Below are positions 359 to 28,552 of a stretch of DNA of 64,000 nt, in pieces. Position 1 is the stretch's first letter. Each line of letters opens with the position of its first letter. Source of the DNA: a virus; IMG/VR virus record IMGVR_UViG_3300033153_015023, positions 1 through 64,000 of that record. The stretch is one strand, 5' to 3'. Under the pieces are notes generated by a model. That model searched no databases. It was not told the DNA's origin and saw nothing but the letters and a program-made list of their open reading frames with translations. Made by a program: the position numbers and the translations under genes.

Positions 359-605
359 TCCTGGCCCCCTTTTAAAATTAATTTTGATATTGTACCATCA
401 AGATTATGAATCTTGCTAGCTATCTGAATGGTACCAGTACAAGGCTTTTCTTCCAGGACTCGTGTTTTTCCTTTATTCCGCCTTGTTTTTTCCTTCTCTA
501 GAGGTTTTAATCGGTTGCCAGGAAGTTCATTTTATCCCCGCCCAACCCTATCAAAACCTTATTTCAAATAACTTATAATTAATTAACTTAATTAACTATA
601 ATAAT

Positions 606-634
606 AAAATAGCATATTTTTAGACGGTTGTCAA
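606..634 (-). promoter_or_regulatory. Leftward sigma70-type promoter
   Basis: Minus strand TTGACA-17 nt-TATTTT with extended TG. Confidence 0.6.
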
Positions 635-883
635 ACATTTTAAAAAGTTTTTTCGCTTTTTTTGTGTTTTTTTACCTGAATTCGGCGTTTTTTACTATAC
701 AAATAACAAGTATTCTTGAGAATATATAACTTTTTATCATTTTTCTGAATTTAAAACTAAACTTTTAGGGCTCTCTGGCCGTATTAAAGAGTATTATACA
801 TTGATTTTACATTGTAATAGATTATTCTATTCAATATGAATTTATTAAGAGAGGGGGGGTATGTCGTTTTTTATATAAATTTG

Positions 884-966
884 TTTCCTTTCCAGATAAA
901 CTATTTTCCTTTCCATATAAAACATCTATATAACCCCTTCCCAGATAAAATATCTATTTTTCCAGG
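884..966. repeat. Short direct repeats in AT-rich intergenic region (candidate iterons, parS or operator)
   Basis: TTTCCAGATAAA, TTTCCATATAAAACATCTAT, TTCCCAGATAAAATATCTAT, TTTCCAGG. Confidence 0.5.
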
Positions 967-1036
967 CGGTAACTATTTTTTATGTTAGGGTGTATTATAT
1001 AGTAGAAAACAATTTTTAGGTATTAGAAAAAAGTTG

Positions 1037-1065
1037 TTGACAAAAAATATTGGGTAGTTTATTAT
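1037..1065 (+). promoter_or_regulatory. Sigma70-type promoter for the ParB-like gene
   Basis: TTGACA-17 nt-TATTAT with upstream A-tract. Confidence 0.8.
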
Positions 1066-1070
1066 TAATA

Positions 1071-1165
1071 GTATGAACGCTAAAGTATTAAATATATTGG
1101 CCCTTCTTCCCGGTGCCCTCCTTCGGGCGTGGCGTTCAGACCGGGAAGCCGGGCTTTATTTTTTA
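1071..1165 (+). promoter_or_regulatory. Structured 5' leader/attenuator, copy 1
   Basis: Stem ggcccttcttcccggt/accgggaagccgggct followed by a T-run; 5' tgaacgcta is complementary to loop tggcgttca. Confidence 0.65.
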
Positions 1166-1171
1166 TAGGAG

Positions 1172-1951
1172 GTGCATATGATAGCACATAGGTTAGCGAA
1201 ATACTTCCCTATACTTGAAGGGGAAGAGTTTGATTTACTTGTACAGGATATAAAAGATCATGGGCAACTTGAACCGATTGTTACTGTAAATGGTGAGATA
1301 CTTGATGGTGTGAATCGCTATAAAGCTTGTATGAAGTTAGGTATTGATACTATTACCGAAGAATATGAAGGTGATGATCCTTTAAGCTATGTTATCTCGT
1401 TAAATATTCGGCGTCGACATCTTGATACCAGCCAGCGAGCAATGTTGGCAACTGAGATGTTGCCGGAGTTTGAGAAGAAAGCGAAAGAAAGATTAAAAAC
1501 TTCATTGCCTGGTGGTGGACGCCTAGGGTCAGAAGACCCAGGGCAAACATGGGAAGACATACATCGCTCAAGGGATGATGCTGCTAAACAATTTGGTGTA
1601 TCTGGCCCGACAATTCAGCGAGCTAAACGCGTCAAAGAGGAAGCGCCTGAAAGAGTAGAAAAGATTATCAAAGGCGAGGAAACAGTAGGTGCCGTTGATG
1701 CAGAATTGCGTCAAAAAAAAGCGGCTAGATCCTATGCAAAGAAGAGAGAGAAGGAAGACAAAAAAGAGATAAAGCAGAAAACGCCTATTTTGGTGAAGGA
1801 ATATTTTGATGCTTTGAAGGCATATAAAAAAGCCTTAGGATTAGCTATCAGGGGAGCTTATCTATTTTCCCCTGAATCAAATAATATACTTCAGACAAAG
1901 CACGATGATCTGATAGAATTGATGCGTAGTCTGGAAGGAGCGATTAAATGA
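1172..1951 (+). CDS. ParB/Srx N-terminal domain protein with HTH
   Basis: GQLEPIV...ILDGVNRY motif, N-x-x-RRHL motif, AAKQFGVS HTH; GGAGG SD. Confidence 0.85.
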   Translation: MHMIAHRLAKYFPILEGEEFDLLVQDIKDHGQLEPIVTVNGEILDGVNRYKACMKLGIDTITEEYEGDDPLSYVISLNIRRRHLDTSQRAMLATEMLPEFEKKAKERLKTSLPGGGRLGSEDPGQTWEDIHRSRDDAAKQFGVSGPTIQRAKRVKEEAPERVEKIIKGEETVGAVDAELRQKKAARSYAKKREKEDKKEIKQKTPILVKEYFDALKAYKKALGLAIRGAYLFSPESNNILQTKHDDLIELMRSLEGAIK

Positions 1952-2445
1952 TCAAAGAAAGGAAAAGTGATATTAGGGAAGATCGACTTAATATAGGTGC
2001 GGATATCCTTTTGGATATGAGAGATGAAGACTTGCCACAAGCAACATTTCTAAGAGTTGCTTTGATTATGGTTAAGTATTTTAAGGAAGGCAAATATATC
2101 AAGGATTTAGAAAAAGTAGGCTATTCTAGTTCCTTTGGCTTAAGACCGAGCTATTGGAATAATAACAGGAAAGATTTAGAGAGAGTTATTCTTGAACGTG
2201 GTTACGTCTTTTATCATTCTCAGGAATGGGTTAAACCAGACAAGGAAAAAAATATACCTGGATTTTTTAGGCATGGCTGGGGATTTCCTACACCAGAAGA
2301 ATTTAATCACACACGTAACCAGCAAAGAAAGGGAATTGTAAAACGGAAAGATACTTATAATGAGAAAATAGAAAATGCACCGGCCAGTTATCAAGATGCC
2401 CTACCCTATCTAAGAACTATGGAAATAGCAGGTCCAAATAATTAG
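1948..2445 (+). CDS. Hypothetical protein, coupled to the ParB-like gene
   Basis: ATGA overlap; 165 aa. Confidence 0.7.
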   Translation: MIKERKSDIREDRLNIGADILLDMRDEDLPQATFLRVALIMVKYFKEGKYIKDLEKVGYSSSFGLRPSYWNNNRKDLERVILERGYVFYHSQEWVKPDKEKNIPGFFRHGWGFPTPEEFNHTRNQQRKGIVKRKDTYNEKIENAPASYQDALPYLRTMEIAGPNN

Positions 2446-2541
2446 GAAGTCCCTTTATTTACAAATTAACTTTGCAGATGTTTTAAGTTTTTTTGTATAA
2501 AGAATTGTTCAATAGATAATGTATTATAGAAGGAGGTTATT

Positions 2542-2769
2542 ATGAAGTTATTAAAACAGTTCGTATTAAAAAAAGATACGTCCACGTACAAACAGCTATT
2601 ATTTATCCTGCCTATAAAATGGCTTCAAAAGACAGGGATGGATAAAGGCGATTTTTTGAATGTGTATGAGATTGATGAATCTACTATAAAAATAGTTGCT
2701 GAGAAAAATCCTTTTGGTCAACCTGAGAATGTATCAAGGGTTGGCAGACCTGTAAAAAGTAAAGGATAA
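2542..2769 (+). CDS. AbrB/MazE/SpoVT-like DNA-binding protein
   Basis: ILPIKWLQKTGMDKGDFLNV pattern; AGGAGG SD. Confidence 0.65.
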   Translation: MKLLKQFVLKKDTSTYKQLLFILPIKWLQKTGMDKGDFLNVYEIDESTIKIVAEKNPFGQPENVSRVGRPVKSKG

Positions 2770-2825
2770 AGACTTGATAAAGACTATGTATTTATATTAT
2801 AATGAACTTCTTCTTCTTCTTTTTA

Positions 2826-2869
2826 GAGCAGGGAATTTGACGCAATGTCTTTTCCCTGCTCACTTTTTT
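2826..2869 (+). terminator. Leader hairpin/terminator upstream of the rep gene
   Basis: gagcagggaa...ttccctgctc followed by a T-run. Confidence 0.6.
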
Positions 2870-2880
2870 AAAGGGTAATT

Positions 2881-3309
2881 ATGTCCATAATTAATTTTTT
2901 TATTGATGATGACATAATTATATCTATCAATAATCGTTTTAGATATGCCAGACAACCTAGAACCATCTTAGAAAAAATTCCTTTTAAAGAAATCATCTAC
3001 TATCTCAATGACAAAACTGGAAAGAAATTCCGGTATACTAATCCTAAGTCGAAAGAAAAAATCACTAGTAGATGGAATGAAGGGTACAGGTTGGATGATT
3101 TTAAAAAGGTTATTGATGTAAAGGTAGCTGAATGGACAGGTACTAATTACGCTATGTATATCAGACCAGAAACTTTATTCGGATCTAAATTTGAAGGTTA
3201 TGTAAATCAAGAACGGGAAGGGACAAATATCTGTCCTAACCCAGAATGTCAATATTTATTAAATGGGACAGAAATAAATTGCCCCAAATGTCATTGGAGG
3301 ATTCGGTGA
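2881..3309 (+). CDS. Phage replication initiator-like protein (conserved phage C-terminal domain) with Zn ribbon
   Basis: IIYYLNDKTGKKF...YIRPETLFGSKFEGYVNQ; CPNPEC..CPKC. Confidence 0.8.
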   Translation: MSIINFFIDDDIIISINNRFRYARQPRTILEKIPFKEIIYYLNDKTGKKFRYTNPKSKEKITSRWNEGYRLDDFKKVIDVKVAEWTGTNYAMYIRPETLFGSKFEGYVNQEREGTNICPNPECQYLLNGTEINCPKCHWRIR

Positions 3310-4163
3310 AGATAATTAACGATCTTAAAATAGGCAAGGGGTTTATTTTTCGAGTAGGTGGACAGCTTGTTTGTGGTTTATGTAGAAAAGAAATTGAGGT
3401 TAGCCAGAAATGTATATACTGTTCTAATTCTTTTGAGCATGGGATAAAAGATGTAGACCATGCTACTAGAATAACAGATGCCTTTTTTAACCAGTTATTC
3501 CCTAAAGAAGATATTTATGATGAGAATAGTGATTACAGACCTAAAGTATTGCATGTAGGGAAACTTTACGATGTAATAGAATCCTGTGAAAAAGCAAAAC
3601 AGTATGATAAGATATATATGAAAGAGCGACTTCTTTCGGAGGCAAACATTCCAAAAAGATATTGTTTTTTAGGTTGGAAAGATTTCCATTCTAATCTAGA
3701 TCTAACTGGGTTAAAAGATTTGTGCTCGAATAATTCAAATGGGGAAATTATTTATTTGCATGGCGATAATAATACTGGTAAAACTTTATTAATGAGTATC
3801 ATGTTGCAAAGATTTCTTGATAATGAGCATAGTATTTATTTTATTACACCAGAGCAAATTGCTAATTTATACGCAAAACACTGGTATGATTCTACAGATA
3901 AGAGAAGTGATTTAGAAAAAATACGATGTTTAGATGTTGTCGGTGTTGATGATTTATTCGATCCGAAGAAGGTGTTTATAGGGAAGAATGGTGGTCTGAT
4001 TATCCCTTCTGTAGATAGTTTTTTACGCTATCGAGTACATAACAATTTAACTACTATTATTACAACTAATATCCCTCTCTTACAAGTTGCACAAACTGAA
4101 TTCCATCAAACTGGAAAACTTTTAGAAAGAGGCGATAAAAAGTTTCGTATTTTATTAACATAA
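3246..4163 (+). CDS. DnaC/IstB-like AAA+ helicase loader (real start probably GTG 3306)
   Basis: Walker A HGDNNTGKT, Walker B VGVDDL, TIITTN; ANIPKRY motif. Confidence 0.8.
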   Translation: MSIFIKWDRNKLPQMSLEDSVKIINDLKIGKGFIFRVGGQLVCGLCRKEIEVSQKCIYCSNSFEHGIKDVDHATRITDAFFNQLFPKEDIYDENSDYRPKVLHVGKLYDVIESCEKAKQYDKIYMKERLLSEANIPKRYCFLGWKDFHSNLDLTGLKDLCSNNSNGEIIYLHGDNNTGKTLLMSIMLQRFLDNEHSIYFITPEQIANLYAKHWYDSTDKRSDLEKIRCLDVVGVDDLFDPKKVFIGKNGGLIIPSVDSFLRYRVHNNLTTIITTNIPLLQVAQTEFHQTGKLLERGDKKFRILLT

Positions 4164-4177
4164 AGAAGGGAAGATGT

Positions 4178-5608
4178 GTGGATTTCTTTTTAAGTAGTGA
4201 TGAAGACAATGAGAGAATTGTTCTAGAAGGTGCTGTGAGAGTGGAAGAGTATTACCAGGTTTTTAGTAGTACTGTGCCAGCAGATTTCCTTAAGGCAGAA
4301 CACAAATGTATTGCAACTGCTCTAATAGAAATAGAAAAAACATCTTCCCCAGGGTTACTTCTTGCCTTTTGTAAAAAAACTGATTTTGTTGCGCCATCTC
4401 TTGAATACATAAAAAAGTTATTTTTCCCGCCACTACCTTCAATAGAAGACTACAAAAAACATGTTGAGATACTCAAATCTGATTCTAGAAGAAGGGTTAT
4501 TGAGGATAAATTGCTTCCTCAATTAATTGAGCATCTTGCTAAAAAATCAGAGCCTATCGGCAATATTTCTGATATAGCAATATCAATAAAAGATGTTGCT
4601 GACTCAGGCGCTGCTAAAATCTATATTCAGAATACAAAAGAACTGTTGGATTCATATAGCGTGGTAGAAGAAGCGCGAAGAAGCGGCAGTAGTTTTTATA
4701 GCTGTGGATTCAAACAAATAGATGAAGAATTAACAAGGGGGTTTTTTCCATCTGGTGTTACTATTATTGGTGGACGTCCAGGGATGGGTAAAAGTTCTTT
4801 TGTTATCAGTAGTGCAATGAGTCTTTCTTTCAAAAAAATTCCTATTCTGTTATTTTCTTTGGAGATGTCATCTATATCTGTTATGGATAGAATTCTATCG
4901 AGAGAGACCAGGGTACCCCTCTCTCAACTAGTAAAACATTCCCACGAATTACCACCAGCTCAATTACAACAAATAAAGGATGTAAAAAAACGACTTTGGG
5001 ATAACGAATATCTGTATGTGTGCGATAGACCAGGTGTATCATTACGTTTTATCAGGGAACAGATTAAAAGGTTCCAGAATATTCATGGGATCAAATACGC
5101 TATTGTATATATAGATTTGTTTGGAAAGATAAAAGATTTGAGTGAGGCTAATATGGCTCAAAGTTATGAGAAAAATCTGAATTTAGTGCAGGGCATGGCA
5201 AGAGAGTTAGGCGTGCATTTTGTTTTAGCAGCACAGATAAATAGAGCTGCTGAGAAAGGAAAAAGTATTTGGAATTACCGGCCTAAATTGCATGATATAA
5301 AGAATTCCGGTGCATGGGAAGAAGTAGCGGATCTGATACTATTTTTGTTTCGTGGAAAATATTATGATGATACTCTCGAAGAAGATGTTATAGAAATTCA
5401 GATAGCTAAACAGCGGGATGGTGCCATGAATACTGTAAAATATTTTCAATTTGTGGGGGAATATGCGTTAATATTAAATGCAGATGTTGTTCCCGCTGAT
5501 AAGAAGGGTAGGGATAGTGGAAAAGAAGATAGCTCGGATGTATATGAAAGCTCTGTTGAAGAAGTCGAGAGAATTAATTCAGCTCGACACCGAAAGATGG
5601 TTACTTGA
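4178..5608 (+). CDS. dnaB: Replicative DNA helicase
   Basis: GGRPGMGKS, FSLEMS, AQINR, SGAWEEVAD, IAKQRDG. Confidence 0.95.
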   Translation: MDFFLSSDEDNERIVLEGAVRVEEYYQVFSSTVPADFLKAEHKCIATALIEIEKTSSPGLLLAFCKKTDFVAPSLEYIKKLFFPPLPSIEDYKKHVEILKSDSRRRVIEDKLLPQLIEHLAKKSEPIGNISDIAISIKDVADSGAAKIYIQNTKELLDSYSVVEEARRSGSSFYSCGFKQIDEELTRGFFPSGVTIIGGRPGMGKSSFVISSAMSLSFKKIPILLFSLEMSSISVMDRILSRETRVPLSQLVKHSHELPPAQLQQIKDVKKRLWDNEYLYVCDRPGVSLRFIREQIKRFQNIHGIKYAIVYIDLFGKIKDLSEANMAQSYEKNLNLVQGMARELGVHFVLAAQINRAAEKGKSIWNYRPKLHDIKNSGAWEEVADLILFLFRGKYYDDTLEEDVIEIQIAKQRDGAMNTVKYFQFVGEYALILNADVVPADKKGRDSGKEDSSDVYESSVEEVERINSARHRKMVT

Positions 5609-6464
5609 TCTAGGGGCAGAAGAACTTCAGCAGCTTGAGAGGGGTTGGTGGGAATTCCGCTGCCTAAATCCTGATCATAACGACCATCATCCCAGCATGG
5701 GATACAATGAATTTACTGGGGCATGGTCCTGTTTTAGTTGTCTTTCAAAAGGCAGTGGCCCGGTGTTTTTAACCATGTTGGCGCTTGATAAACAATATGA
5801 AGAAGCGGTTGAGTTTGTTCTTGACTATGTGATAGGTAAAGAGGATTGGAAGCCTAGAGAGATCAAAAAGAAGCGTAGGATAAAAGTACCTATAGAAGGG
5901 TTTGTAGAACTTCCAGCAGCAGCAATTAAGTATTTAAAAGATAGAGGAATTCCTATAAAGTTTGCACAAAAAAAGGGTGTTAAATGGTCGAATAGTATGA
6001 GCAGGATTATTATTCCCATAACAGAATATTATTGGACTGCAAGGGCTATTGATGATTCAAAACCGAAGTACCTGCATACTAAAGGTTTTTCAAAAAGTGA
6101 AGTTTTGTACAATTTTGATTCTGTGCATAGGGTTGTTTCTGGTGTAGGTGTTGTCGAAGGTGTGTTTGATGCGTGGAAAGTAGAGCTCGCAGGATTCCCA
6201 TGCGTGGCAACTTTCGGCGCGGGAATATCGAATGGACAATTAAGGCTACTGGATGGATTTGTACGATTAGTAGCCATACCTGATAAGGATCAAGGTGGTG
6301 AATTATTTATTGAGAGAATTTCAAAAGTGAGGAATCCTGAATTATGGATAGCGGAACCACCTGGGAAGGATGTAGGGGCGTGTACTATAGAAGAAGTGAG
6401 GAAGATATGGGAAGAAAAGAGGCTGTTTTGGAAGGTATATTCACATATTTTTGTCAAGAAATAA
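5478..6464 (+). CDS. dnaG: DNA primase, CHC2 Zn finger plus Toprim (start probably ~5538-5544)
   Basis: CLNPDHNDHHPS..CFSC; VVEGVFDA; DKDQGG. Confidence 0.9.
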   Translation: MQMLFPLIRRVGIVEKKIARMYMKALLKKSRELIQLDTERWLLDLGAEELQQLERGWWEFRCLNPDHNDHHPSMGYNEFTGAWSCFSCLSKGSGPVFLTMLALDKQYEEAVEFVLDYVIGKEDWKPREIKKKRRIKVPIEGFVELPAAAIKYLKDRGIPIKFAQKKGVKWSNSMSRIIIPITEYYWTARAIDDSKPKYLHTKGFSKSEVLYNFDSVHRVVSGVGVVEGVFDAWKVELAGFPCVATFGAGISNGQLRLLDGFVRLVAIPDKDQGGELFIERISKVRNPELWIAEPPGKDVGACTIEEVRKIWEEKRLFWKVYSHIFVKK

Positions 6465-6472
6465 AAAAGTTG

Positions 6473-6501
6473 TTGACAATTATTATTGTGGGGTTTATAT
6501 T
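6473..6501 (+). promoter_or_regulatory. Sigma70-type promoter upstream of the repeat array
   Basis: AAAAAAGTTGTTGACA-17 nt-TATATT, same upstream context as the 1037 promoter. Confidence 0.8.
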
Positions 6502-6508
6502 ATAGAGA

Positions 6509-6606
6509 GTATGAGTATTCGACTATTTCAAAGATTTGTATTGCCTCCAAAAATTTGATATCTTTAGTCGGATACTCAGTCAAATTTGCGGGGGCTTTAT
6601 TTTTTA
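6509..6606 (+). promoter_or_regulatory. Structured 5' leader/attenuator, copy 2
   Basis: Stem gcctcc..aaatttga/tcaaattt..gggggc followed by a T-run; 5' tgagtattcgacta is complementary to loop tagtcggatactca. Confidence 0.65.
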
Positions 6607-6621
6607 TAAGGGGGAATTAAA

Positions 6622-6914
6622 GAGCGGGCCAAGAAGAATGAGAAAACCAGTGGTCACGAGCGAGCCAATCCCCGCGAGAAAACCACCAGAGGTGAGCGAG
6701 CCACGGAATATGAGAAAACCATGTTTCACGAGCGAGCCAATGATCAAGAGAAAACCACTCCCCTGGAGCGTGCCAAAGGTGTGGAGTAAACCAGAGTGTT
6801 AGAGCGTGCCACGAATATGGAGAAAACCATAGAAGGGAAGCGAGCCATTGATGTCGAGAAAACCATTGATAAAGAGCGAGTCAAGTGAAAAGAGAAAACC
6901 AGTGGGTGTGAGCG
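6622..6914 (+). ncRNA. TIGR-like dual-repeat guide array (8 units of 36 nt)
   Basis: GAGCG(A/G/T)GCCA-N8-GAGAAAACCA-N8, units starting at 6622, 6658, 6694, 6730, 6766, 6802, 6838, 6874, plus terminal GAGCG at 6910; 16 different spacers. Confidence 0.85.
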
Positions 6915-6972
6915 TTATTATTTATTAAAAGGTTAAATTGATTTTAAAAAAGTTCAATATAAGGAGAAGAAG

Positions 6973-7662
6973 GTGCGACGTATAAAAAAGAAAGTAATCT
7001 GGCAGGTAAAAGCAAATCCAGAAAAAATAAGGCTCTGGAAACAAAATATTTCCAGGGGATTAAAACTTTATTGGATGTCACCAGCAGGCATATTAAGAAA
7101 ACAGGTTATGAGGGAAAGTTTCTCTGGACCTGTTAAAGTAGAGTATCAAAAGAAGATACAAAGTAAGAAACCTTTTGAAGATATTCTGAAGGAATTTGCG
7201 CCATGGAAAGAAGGTTTGATACGTAAGTTCTCTAGTTACCCAGCAGAAGAAATTTCACAGGCAATAGATATTGGCATGTGGAAGGGGTATACAAAGTGTG
7301 TAGATAAAAAGTATCTAACATCTTCTGTAACCAGCTATGGATACTGGTCCCTGCTAGATTTTTTAGAGAGTGAAAGACATCCCGATGGAAAACTTGTTTC
7401 TACACCTACTGCTAATATGGATGTTTTTGAAGATGATGTCATATCTATCGAATCAAAACCTTTATTCTGGGCAGCTGTAAAATTTGTTAGGGATAAACTT
7501 TCAAAACCTGGAAAAGAAACACTAGATCTTCTGATCAAAGGATATAGCCAGCGGGAAATAGCAGAAATAAGGGGTGTTTCACCAGGAAGAATTTCACAAA
7601 TTATTACAAATATTATCCGGCCACGAATAGCAGAAGTTTTATCCTATGCAAGTATTATGTAA
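6973..7662 (+). CDS. Phage sigma70-family RNA polymerase sigma factor with basic N-terminal extension
   Basis: Region 2-like EEISQAIDIGMWKG...YWSLLDFL; region 4 HTH GYSQREIAEIRGVSPGRISQI; AAGGAG SD. Confidence 0.75.
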   Translation: MRRIKKKVIWQVKANPEKIRLWKQNISRGLKLYWMSPAGILRKQVMRESFSGPVKVEYQKKIQSKKPFEDILKEFAPWKEGLIRKFSSYPAEEISQAIDIGMWKGYTKCVDKKYLTSSVTSYGYWSLLDFLESERHPDGKLVSTPTANMDVFEDDVISIESKPLFWAAVKFVRDKLSKPGKETLDLLIKGYSQREIAEIRGVSPGRISQIITNIIRPRIAEVLSYASIM

Positions 7663-18636: not shown

Positions 18637-19450
18637 TATTTGTGTAATAGATGCAAAAAACTTTGTCTATAGAATGGATTGGGCTTATAGAGTTCTCAAA
18701 GATTCTAAAGATAGATCTACCAGTGTTTTGTATGGAACCATAAAAGGTCTTTTAAACTTAAAAAAATATTATCCTATAAAACGATTTATGTTTTTATGGG
18801 ATTCCTTTAACAGTTGGCGTGTTAATATCTATCCGGAATATAAAGCAGGTAGAAAAAAAGACTATCAGAATACGTTTACTGATCAAATAGATATTCTAAG
18901 AAAAGATATACTTCCATATATTGGTATAGATCAATTAGAGGCGAATGGTTATGAAGCTGATGACTTAGCTGCATGGATAGTAAAAAATTGTTGTGGTGAT
19001 ATATTATTAGTTTCTAATGATCATGATTGGAAACAACTTTTATGGAATGATTACATTTGGTTATTTGTACCTATTAAAAAAACTGTTCTAGGTAAACATT
19101 TAGTTTTAAAAGAAGAGGGTTTGACGCCACAACAGCTTCCTTATTATTGGAGTATAATTGGTGATACTTCAGATAATATAAAAGGTATTTATAGATTCCC
19201 AAAAAAAGAAGCTAAGTTATTAGTTTTAAAAACAGATTGTTTTATTAACTTTTCGCCTATTCAATCTAAATGGGAAAAGGTGCTAATAGAAAATATTGAT
19301 ATTGTAGAACGCAATTTAAAATTAATTCAATTGAATGGTAAAATAACTAATATTGCATGGACTAGATCTCTTAAAGATAAAAAGGTTTTTCAAGAAATTT
19401 GTAATGAATATGGTATTGTATCCCTGGTTGTAAAATTTGGGTTTTTATAA
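18629..19450 (+). CDS. 5'-3' exonuclease (FEN/RNase H-like)
   Basis: YPEYKAGR, EADD, SNDHD, GDTSDNIKGI. Confidence 0.92.
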   Translation: MYDICVIDAKNFVYRMDWAYRVLKDSKDRSTSVLYGTIKGLLNLKKYYPIKRFMFLWDSFNSWRVNIYPEYKAGRKKDYQNTFTDQIDILRKDILPYIGIDQLEANGYEADDLAAWIVKNCCGDILLVSNDHDWKQLLWNDYIWLFVPIKKTVLGKHLVLKEEGLTPQQLPYYWSIIGDTSDNIKGIYRFPKKEAKLLVLKTDCFINFSPIQSKWEKVLIENIDIVERNLKLIQLNGKITNIAWTRSLKDKKVFQEICNEYGIVSLVVKFGFL

Positions 19451-20013
19451 TGCTGTGGTTTATTATAACTTTACCAGCAAAACTTGCAGAATACCATCTT
19501 GAAAAAGCAATTAGACGGGGGTTATTGAACAGTCATTTTATTAGAAAAGATATAATTATCTATATTCCAGTACTTACACAGATAACAAATGGACATACAA
19601 CCAGCATATCTTTATATGAAGGTTATGCGTTTTTAGGTCTGCCTGATAAAGAAGACGTCTTTCAATTTTTTGAAGGTTTTGAAGACAGATATAACTTTTT
19701 GACGGTGCTACGAAAGGTTGTTACTGAAAAAAATCATGTTGGGAAATCTGTTGATAATAAAATACCTGCAATAATCTCTCGAAGTATTATAACTGATGCA
19801 AAGCGCAGATGTAGTACATCACGAAGGGAATCAGATAAATCTTATCGATTTAAAATTAAGGATAGAGTCCATATTACAAAAGGTGTGTTTGAAGGATTTG
19901 AAGGAACTATAAAACAAATAAGTTCTTTAGGGACAGAAGTGTTTGTCGATATTTTCTTTTTAGGTGCGACTACATCAATTCGTACGGATAAAGAAGATCT
20001 TGAAAAAATATAG
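19450..20013 (+). CDS. nusG: NusG-family antitermination factor (NGN plus KOW)
   Basis: LYEGYAFL; FKIKDRVHITKGVFEGFEGTI KOW. Confidence 0.8.
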   Translation: MLWFIITLPAKLAEYHLEKAIRRGLLNSHFIRKDIIIYIPVLTQITNGHTTSISLYEGYAFLGLPDKEDVFQFFEGFEDRYNFLTVLRKVVTEKNHVGKSVDNKIPAIISRSIITDAKRRCSTSRRESDKSYRFKIKDRVHITKGVFEGFEGTIKQISSLGTEVFVDIFFLGATTSIRTDKEDLEKI

Positions 20014-26934: not shown

Positions 26935-27321
26935 TTGAATACAAAAGAACTTAAATTCAGGATTACATATCAACATGAAGATACAGGACGATTTGTACAA
27001 AGAATTATAGAGCTGGGTGAGGCCTTTCCATATTTAGCAGAAAAGTGGTTTATAGTTGGAAAGGATCAATATATTGGCCTTAAGGATAAATCAGGTAATA
27101 AAATATATGATGGGGATATTGTTTATATATATGGAAGCGAATTTAATGATATACCTATGAGCAAAAGAACAAAGCAAAAAGTTGTTTGGGCTGAACCATG
27201 TTATGCTTTTGTGAATATGGATGTAGATATAAATACTACCTGTTGTATTTCAACTTATATTACTGGTAGGGATATGGAAATCATTGGTAGTATTTATGAA
27301 AATCCAGAATTGTTTGATTGA
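26935..27321 (+). CDS. YopX family protein
   Basis: LKFR...QYIGLKDKSGNKIYDGDIV...EIIGSIYENPEL. Confidence 0.85.
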   Translation: MNTKELKFRITYQHEDTGRFVQRIIELGEAFPYLAEKWFIVGKDQYIGLKDKSGNKIYDGDIVYIYGSEFNDIPMSKRTKQKVVWAEPCYAFVNMDVDINTTCCISTYITGRDMEIIGSIYENPELFD

Positions 27322-28213: not shown

Positions 28214-28552
28214 ATGAGTAGAAAACTATTATTTTCTGTAACTAAGAAAGACTTAAAGATAACTTGGTTCTCCGGTAAAGGTGGTGGAGGACAGTATAGG
28301 AATAAGCACCAAAACTGTTGTAGAATTCAGCATGAAGATAGTGGAGTAACTGTAACCGGTCAAGATGAAAGGAGTCAGAAGCAGAATTTGAAGAATGCTT
28401 TTTTGAGACTGACAAAACATCCTGATTTTAAGAAGTGGTTGAGAATAAAGGCGTCGGAAATGACGTTGGATAAGATTGAGTTTGAAAGGGAAGTGCAAAG
28501 GGCTGTAGATGAAATGATGAAATCAGAAAATCTAAAGATAGAGTATTTTTAA
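28214..28552 (+). CDS. Peptide chain release factor-like (RF-1 domain/ArfB-like) peptidyl-tRNA hydrolase
   Basis: SGKGGGGQYRNK...RIQH..SG...ERSQKQN. Confidence 0.85.
   Translation: MSRKLLFSVTKKDLKITWFSGKGGGGQYRNKHQNCCRIQHEDSGVTVTGQDERSQKQNLKNAFLRLTKHPDFKKWLRIKASEMTLDKIEFEREVQRAVDEMMKSENLKIEYF

Follow-up and report, generated by a model that had tools for sequence, protein, structure and literature searches.

Organization of the locus and the two cassette copies

We analyzed a 64,000-nucleotide (nt) stretch of viral DNA, hereafter the window, which comprises bases 1-64000 of IMG/VR record IMGVR_UViG_3300033153_015023, a virus genome of 80,025 bp with 114-bp direct terminal repeats that is rated 100% complete. 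Our subject is the region 6463-6614, where a promoter and a structured RNA leader stand ahead of a dual-repeat TIGR array, and a related promoter and leader at 1027-1173 that precede an operon encoding a ParB-like protein. Nearly all genes of the window are on the + strand, and the two cassettes, the array, and the genes beside them lie on this strand as well.

At the first site, promoter P1 (1027-1065) and leader copy 1 (1071-1165) are followed directly by a ribosome-binding site (RBS; AGGAGG, 1167-1172), by a gene for a ParB-like protein (1178-1951; 257 amino acids (aa) from the ATG at 1178), and by a gene for a 165-aa protein (1948-2445), whose start overlaps the ParB-like stop. At the second site, promoter P2 (6463-6501) starts at the final stop-codon base of the primase open reading frame (ORF; 5478-6464). 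It is followed by leader copy 2 (6509-6605), by the array (6622-6914), and, directly behind the array, by a sigma-70-family factor gene (6973-7662), which is a core gene of the lineage.

The cassette is present twice, at 1027-1173 and 6463-6614, with an identical order of blocks, and across the 80,025 bp of the genome each conserved block was found exactly twice, in these two copies only (blastn-short E = 7.8e-4 per block). In the first of these, AAAAAAGTTGTTGACAA, an A-rich stretch runs into a consensus -35 element; it is identical at 17 of 17 positions, AGTATGA at the predicted start site at 7 of 7, and the tail GGGCTTTATTTTTTATA at 17 of 17, after which a Shine-Dalgarno-like (SD-like) run follows (AGGAGG in copy 1, AGGGGG in copy 2). 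The middle of the cassette, about 75 nt, is without sequence similarity between the copies. In P1 the A-rich block occupies 1027-1043, with the -35 element TTGACA at 1037-1042 and the -10 element TATTAT at 1060-1065; in P2 the same block occupies 6463-6479, with TTGACA at 6473-6478 and TATATT at 6496-6501. Both promoters have a 17-nt spacer and match the consensus at 11 of 12 positions. The sequence-only reading from which this work started had reported a second leader copy at 6463-6614 with the same promoter context and the same GTATGA start; its letters and coordinates were all correct on re-checking, and the three identical blocks in the same order bear the copy out.

In copy 2 the SD-like tail (AAGGGGG, 6608-6614) has no ORF behind it, which suggests that it is a relic and that this copy descends from a version of the cassette that led a gene. 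The 17-nt tail GGGCTTTATTTTTTATA had 29 matches in viral contigs, all of them ordinary terminator ends or unrelated small RNAs, and none was accompanied by the promoter or by ParB. In three large viral contigs (L068, L073, and L078) the GGGCTTTATTTTTTATA tail ends a terminator that follows a consensus promoter and a structured RNA of roughly 110 nt, in nearly identical form. This RNA, whose sequence is unrelated to the cassette leader, is a candidate phage small RNA.

Two crossing helices in the leader

Both leaders have a predicted start at GUAUGA and contain two helices, which we call A and T. In copy 2, tgagtattcgacta (A5', 6512-6525) pairs with tagtcggatactca (A3', 6565-6578) over 14 pairs, one of them U-G, and is followed by g6579, by the 3' arm of the second stem (6580-6595), and by GGGCTTTATTTTTTATAAGGGGG. 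This 14-nt pairing had been noted from the letters alone and was confirmed here; it is also the minimum free energy (MFE) fold. In copy 1, UGAACGCUA (A5', 1074-1082) pairs with UGGCGUUCA (A3', 1130-1138) inside the terminator loop. Helix T is formed by 1099-1103 plus 1106-1114 with 1140-1148 plus 1151-1155 in copy 1, and by 6543-6548 plus 6551-6558 with 6580-6587 plus 6590-6595 in copy 2. In both copies A3' ends one base before the 3' arm of T. Each T is a GC-rich hairpin followed by a U-run (1156-1165 and 6596-6605), with 14 pairs and then UUUAUUUUUU in copy 1 and 6 + 8 pairs and the same U-run in copy 2. Because its 3' arm runs straight into the U-run, T is predicted to be a canonical intrinsic terminator.

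The two folds are close in energy. The MFE fold of copy 2 is A, at -25.8 or -26.0 kcal/mol in two calculations (z = -3.44; none of 200 shuffles was as good), against -20.8 kcal/mol for the T fold, whereas in copy 1 the T fold reaches -31.9 kcal/mol and the fold with A forced -27.1 kcal/mol, with an overall z of -1.94. Such near-equality is as expected of a switch. When the 5' segment was mononucleotide-shuffled 1,000 times and its duplex energy with the terminator interior compared, the observed energy was reached by 3 of 1,000 shuffles for copy 1 and by none for copy 2. Helices A and T cross in a pseudoknot topology and have no bases in common, which leaves their mutual exclusion to steric reasoning. 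An Rfam scan of window positions 600-7200 gave no family match at E <= 1.

The same leader design in relatives

Relatives of the ParB-like protein were found on 3 viral contigs and 13 metagenome contigs. Wherever the contig continues, at seven loci, a homologue of the 165-aa protein lies downstream of the ParB-like gene, and the two therefore form a conserved two-gene operon. Where this operon is promoter-proximal, four further phage lineages (loci L001/L002, L003, L085, and L086/L096) have a leader of the same design and of unrelated sequence, in the order promoter, ATG at the start, A5', 5' arm of T, A3', 3' arm of T, U-run, and RBS. In the same shuffle test, the observed pairing energy was reached by 3 of 1,000 shuffles for L001, 1 of 1,000 for L086, and 57 of 1,000 for L003; L085, whose arm is cut by the contig end, was not significant. 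In the four strongest leaders A3' abuts the 3' arm of T, with 0-1 nt between them.

Where the A helices depart from Watson-Crick pairing, the mismatch read on the + strand is in every case G-U, so that RNA, and not DNA, is indicated as the pairing molecule. In an alignment restricted to the helices, 6 of 7 pairs of helix A change on both sides; this alignment was guided by the structure and is thus circular, serving as illustration and support only. The covariation claimed earlier from the two copies, in which complementarity is kept although the paired sequences differ, is thin when taken from these copies alone, and it is borne out by the independent relatives that share the design. No second copies of the relatives' own leaders were found by sequence within their fetched loci. 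At L001, a pair of direct repeats, different from those of the window described below, overlaps the promoter.

The same architecture with different sequences, ahead of ParB-like/winged-helix operons in four lineages, indicates a real RNA element. Judged by these comparisons, the leader is a conserved element without an Rfam family and a candidate new cis-regulatory RNA motif, and the cassette appears to belong natively to the ParB-like/winged-helix two-gene operons of several phage lineages. One could suppose instead that only the promoter and the terminator tail were duplicated, with the long-range helices as functionless accidents. AT-rich leaders fold easily, and the fold of copy 1 is unexceptional by its z value, but the pairing of the 5' end with the loop recurs in four independent sequences, at p <= 0.003 each and always in the same place, and we find this supposition barely credible.

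A proposed transcription attenuator

We propose, with a probability of roughly 55%, that 6463-6614 is the second copy of a promoter and attenuator-leader cassette, in which the leader acts as a transcription attenuator and helix A sets the level of read-through. A near-consensus sigma-70-type promoter would fire a transcript starting at or beside the conserved UAUGA. Its first 7-14 nt (A5') are complementary to A3' in the loop of the downstream GC-rich hairpin T, and the cargo lies after the U-run. T would halt RNA polymerase ahead of the cargo, while A, which would be complete before the 3' arm of T is made, would cross T, interfere with it, and set how much transcription continues. In copy 2, with A (-26.0) the stronger of the two helices and T at -20.8, good read-through into the array and the sigma-like gene would be expected; in copy 1, where T (-31.9) is stronger than A (-27.1), the ParB-like operon would be throttled.

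Several points weigh against this proposal. The start site, termination, read-through, and the exclusivity of A and T are all predictions. The terminator of copy 2 is weak, since its loop spans 21 nt and its stem includes a 2x2 internal loop and a single G-U pair, and no effector that would flip the switch was identified. Identical promoters show common initiation, which does not necessarily mean common regulation. The independent leader sequences number only five, among which L003 is marginal and L085 is cut by the contig end. Finally, A and T share no nucleotides and the loop lengths would allow both to form at once as a pseudoknot, and A would then not have to act as an antiterminator.

This last point leads to an alternative without any switch, in which A and T form one compact pseudoknot that buries the 5' end between stacked helices. 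The leader would then be a constitutive leaky terminator or insulator and a 5' stabilizer, and would perhaps yield mainly a stable RNA of some 95 nt. The abutment of A3' and the 3' arm of T favors coaxial stacking, helix A starts 1-4 nt from the predicted start in both copies, and the connecting loops of 15-17 nt in copy 1 are long enough by a geometric estimate made without a tool. In copy 2, however, bridging a 14-bp helix with a connector of 6 nt would cause strain, and the near-equal energies of the two folds resemble a switch. We consider this arrangement unlikely, although it has a real chance of being correct.

A further alternative is ribosome-coupled attenuation, in which the 5'-terminal AUG opens a leaderless mini-ORF that runs through T, so that a ribosome masks the 5' arm of T and permits read-through, and A later sequesters the AUG. 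An ATG is present at the predicted start in six of six leaders, and in four ParB leaders the frame runs through T for 31, 38, 40, and 31 codons. In copy 1 the frame (1073-1168; 31 codons) has its TAG stop just before the ParB RBS and ends 9 nt before the ParB-like start; at L001 its 38 codons end in an ATGA overlap with the ParB start codon, and at L086 it ends 24 nt before the start. In copy 2 the frame (6511-6558) stops within the T 5' arm after 15 codons. Compared with shuffled sequence, however, these frames are only slightly more open than chance would give (shuffle fractions 0.24, 0.31, 0.05, and 0.10), the frame at L003 has 2 codons, the peptides are not conserved, and the ATG could be kept merely because UGA/UCA closes the A helix. 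Translation-coupled control therefore seems improbable to us, more so than the static pseudoknot.

The leader might also be a loading site for a NusG-like paralogue that makes polymerase terminator-resistant over the long + strand operons, as LoaP, UpxY, and RfaH do. The window encodes a specialized NusG-like paralogue (19450-20013, + strand) that is a candidate processive antiterminator. It matches phrog_6386 "transcription antiterminator" at 2e-5 and the NusG, UpxY, and LoaP models at 2e-8 to 4e-5, below their cut-offs; an Atlas structure gives a TM of 0.65 to NusG, and the leader terminators stand ahead of long co-directional operons. On the other side, the leader-bearing genomes G002 (100% complete) and G003 (92% complete) are without a NusG-like gene, a leader-less relative described below (G056) has one with 35% identity, the gene being a core gene of the lineage, and no ops-like element was identified. 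As a general explanation the paralogue was rejected, since leader and gene do not co-occur in the relatives, and we regard loading at this leader as highly improbable. The paralogue may still help read-through in this phage. The middle genes of the window also include one for a small RF-1-domain protein (28214-28552; ArfB/peptidyl-tRNA-hydrolase-like, 4e-14) and one for a YopX protein (26935-27321).

An orphan TIGR array

The array behind leader copy 2 consists of eight units of 36 nt, each with an edge repeat GAGCGAGCCA, an 8-nt spacer A, a loop repeat GAGAAAACCA, and an 8-nt spacer B, and it ends in a shortened edge repeat, GAGCG (6910-6914). Dual-repeat TIGR arrays have alternating repeats of 8-12 nt, spacers of about 9 nt, and a unit of about 36 nt, and their edge and loop repeats share end motifs, with a box C "CCA" at the 3' end and a covarying 5' motif (PMC12045711). 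Here two 10-nt repeats alternate, the spacers are 8 nt, and both the edge and the loop repeat have the form GAG....CCA. By this unit structure, 6622-6914 is a genuine dual-repeat TIGR array.

The exact repeat pair was found in 52 IMG/VR viral contigs, with 70 other array starts. Of these starts, 29 follow a putative tasA gene directly, no more than 60 nt from its stop codon. The encoded protein, which we take as TasA, has 235-320 aa, a conserved C-terminus (..DLYVAWRTLEGLPV..), and a weak match to the RNA-binding region of the IS110 family. At seven same-repeat loci a ParB-like gene with a DG[FMN]HR motif, corresponding to the published TasParB, lies just upstream. The repeats are identical across the contigs of same-repeat phages, while their Tas proteins have diverged to 29-78% identity. 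Many of these phages (at L005, L013, L025, L028, and others) carry more than one array, two or three in number and 1-2 kb from each other, and tasParB and tasA lie in the intervals. A leader with a hairpin and U-run, which the sequence-only reading had proposed to look for at TIGR/Tas loci elsewhere, was absent from all 70 array starts of this repeat family; a few of these arrays have their own plain promoter 10-20 nt upstream. Spacers of the array (8 + 8 nt) gave only chance-level matches, with 1-2 mismatches, to the phage itself and to 0.85 Mb of fetched loci.

The phage genome appears to encode no Tas protein. A hidden Markov model (HMM) built from 12 Tas proteins of same-repeat loci found nothing in it, while the same model detected Tas in the control records and in 9 of 10 complete same-repeat phages. 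Comparison of the Tas profile with all 71 ORFs of at least 130 aa by hhalign gave a highest probability of 1.7%, and a Pfam Nop search of the phage gave no match. As the genome is without a tas gene, the array is an orphan by these profile searches: a well-formed member of a widespread repeat family in a complete phage. By the same profile, a second complete phage (G009, locus L008; 89,129 bp, 100% complete) carries a same-repeat array without Tas; its array has a plain promoter directly upstream, and the phage has no ParB of the window type.

Published TIGR surveys start at tas genes and seek arrays around them, so that arrays without tas and the transcription signals that drive arrays fall outside their view. 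That a complete phage keeps an array without Tas poses a testable question, namely whether the array serves a Tas protein in trans or interferes with one. In one version of interference, the array would not be a guide set for an effector of the phage; its early transcript would act as decoy or hijacker of TasA (or TasA-TasParB) in rival same-repeat phages, an RNA "anti-TIGR", with the ParB-like/winged-helix pair as the protein arm of the same inter-phage conflict module. We give this idea only a slim chance.

The stretch from 6890 to 6985, across the end of the array, shows no structure (z = +0.55), and the search for + strand terminators gave none between the array and the sigma-like gene at 6973. 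Consequently P2 and the leader are predicted to gate both the array and the sigma-like gene, and probably more genes downstream. In the predicted arrangement, a strong early-type promoter thus drives the array by way of a leader that bears a terminator, with a sigma gene downstream.

The ParB-like and 165-aa proteins as candidate partners

From the shared leader, the sequence-only reading had drawn the further conclusion that the ParB-like protein and its neighbor are candidate partners of the array. They could be a Tas substitute or a TasParB-like accessory, forming one system split between two places. The shared promoter and leader, the lack of a Tas protein in the phage, and the joint absence of both cassettes from a syntenic relative speak for such a system. 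So does the literature, in which tasParB denotes ParB-like genes in operons with tasA and 10-nt-repeat arrays (PMC12045711), the repeats of the present array being exactly those of such loci.

The proteins themselves point elsewhere. The ParB-like protein has a DGVNR motif, a helix-turn-helix, and a coiled-coil C-terminus, and it matches phrog_21315 (7.6e-28), other phage ParB-like PHROGs, and TIGR00180 (8e-6). Against five TasParB sequences, hhalign aligned 50 core residues with a probability of 5%; the motif is DGVNR versus DGFHR in TasParB, and no tasA lies behind the ParB-like gene of the window. On this evidence the protein shares only the generic ParB core with TasParB and is of another ParB family. 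A scan of genome contigs with the ParB-like protein returned distant matches only and thus gave no host clue.

The 165-aa protein is predicted to contain a winged-helix domain and a long C-terminal helix. About 15 distant relatives were found among 1.8 billion representatives, a word-index homology search returned one relative with 75% identity, and a pattern search of viral contigs found no close relatives. Its structural model (pLDDT 78) has a beta hairpin and a long helix besides other helices. In a fold search it matched winged-helix domains best, with Z of 5-7.3 (cullin WHB, Z 7.3; TubR, Z 5.3), and no Nop or TasR chain was among the matches listed. Comparison of its profile with the Tas profile by hhalign gave a probability of 0.3%. 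The structure prediction that the sequence-only reading had recommended for this protein thus yields a winged helix and a long helix, with no listed Nop match.

The distribution of the genes agrees with this. Phages with the ParB/165-aa operon, including G002 and G003 and several contigs, carry neither same-family arrays nor Tas, and five array-bearing records that are Tas-less or incomplete are all without a ParB of the window type. The lack of spacer matches to the phage itself and the absence of the leader from the 70 other array starts likewise speak against a partnership. The earlier reading had itself named two findings that would tell against it, a leader ahead of many unrelated genes and a lack of association between ParB and arrays; the first was not seen, while for the second no ParB-array association was found. 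Partnership between these two proteins and the array is therefore not supported, and we regard it as highly doubtful.

Upstream of P1 by about 90-150 nt lie three direct repeats, CTT(T/C)CCA(G/T)ATAAA (starts at 888, 909, and 937; 888-949), which are unique in the genome. In form they are like iterons or operators; the ParB-like/winged-helix pair could bind them, or they could mark an origin.

Proposed insertion history and probable shared control

A complete 86.8-kb phage (G056, locus L100) is syntenic with the window over a 75-aa gene and the DnaD-like, DnaC-like, DnaB, primase, and sigma-like genes, with 27-50% identity. In this phage the sigma-like homologue lies directly behind the primase gene, with about 100-125 nt and a plain promoter between the primase stop and the sigma start, whereas the corresponding gap in the window is 509 nt and holds P2, the leader, and the array. 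G056 has neither a ParB of the window family nor an array, and both cassettes are missing together with their cargo. Their absence from a syntenic genome supports the view that they derive from one kind of insertion module and indicates that both are accessory. The best explanation of the sequence comparison is that this phage has received a copy of the cassette, along with a TIGR array, in the interval separating its primase and sigma genes.

An exact 10-nt direct repeat, TAAAAAAGTT, at 6462-6471 and 6945-6954 brackets P2, the leader, and the array, and 6597-6618 is 77% alike to 6918-6939. The insertion may have left the bracket and the similar pair as a scar of microhomology or duplication, or they may be due to chance in AT-rich DNA.

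The shared promoter and leader make it probable that one signal turns on both the array and the ParB operon. Of the earlier proposal that the pair and the array are co-regulated or stem from one insertion module, and that the two proteins are hence candidate partners of the array, the part concerning co-regulation or a common cassette origin is supported, while the partnership is not.

Comparison with known systems

In bacterial attenuators such as trp/TRAP, pyr/PyrR, and bgl-sac RAT/LicT-SacY, a promoter-proximal intrinsic terminator is combined with an earlier-forming alternative helix of similar energy. The leader described here is like them in having a terminator just before the first gene and a competing upstream helix that is predicted to form first. 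It is unlike them in that the alternative helix pairs with the loop of the terminator and not with its arm, which results in a crossing topology, and no effector-binding motif is known for it.

Phages also have cis-acting antitermination units, such as putL/putR of HK022 and the PR'-qut-tR' region of lambdoid phages. The two cassettes resemble these as paired RNA elements just past two phage promoters, similar in fold and different in sequence, with a short terminated leader before long operons. They differ from these units in that their fold does not resemble the two stems of put, a Q-like gene was not found, and the region 600-7200 has no Rfam match.

Phage-borne CRISPR repeat units and orphan arrays, including RNA anti-CRISPRs, were reportedly described by Camara-Wilpert et al. 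in 2023. The present array is similar as a guide-type array without an effector gene, but it belongs to a different guide system, and evidence of decoy or hijacking activity is lacking here. The systems of LoaP, UpxY, and RfaH (PMC12691694, PMC11685472) share with this phage a leader with intrinsic terminators and a NusG-like gene on the same element; in contrast to them, leader and NusG-like gene do not occur together in the relatives of this phage.

The closest comparison for the array is with TIGR systems with TasA and TasParB (Faure et al. 2025, PMC12045711; Xu et al. 2026, preprint 10.64898/2026.09.09.750476). It shares with them 36-nt units in which two 10-nt repeats alternate, each with CCA at its end, and spacers of 8 nt, as well as a shortened terminal edge repeat, and its exact repeats are common to the 52 viral contigs that carry TasA, seven with a TasParB-type gene. 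Unlike those systems, it lies in a complete genome without tas and has no terminator after it, and the ParB-like gene, 4.2 kb away, is of another ParB family. It also has its own structured, terminator-bearing leader, which is found at none of the 70 other starts. In this leader the terminator loop is the pairing partner of the transcript's own 5' end, a design without an Rfam family that five independent examples now tie to the ParB-like operons of phages.

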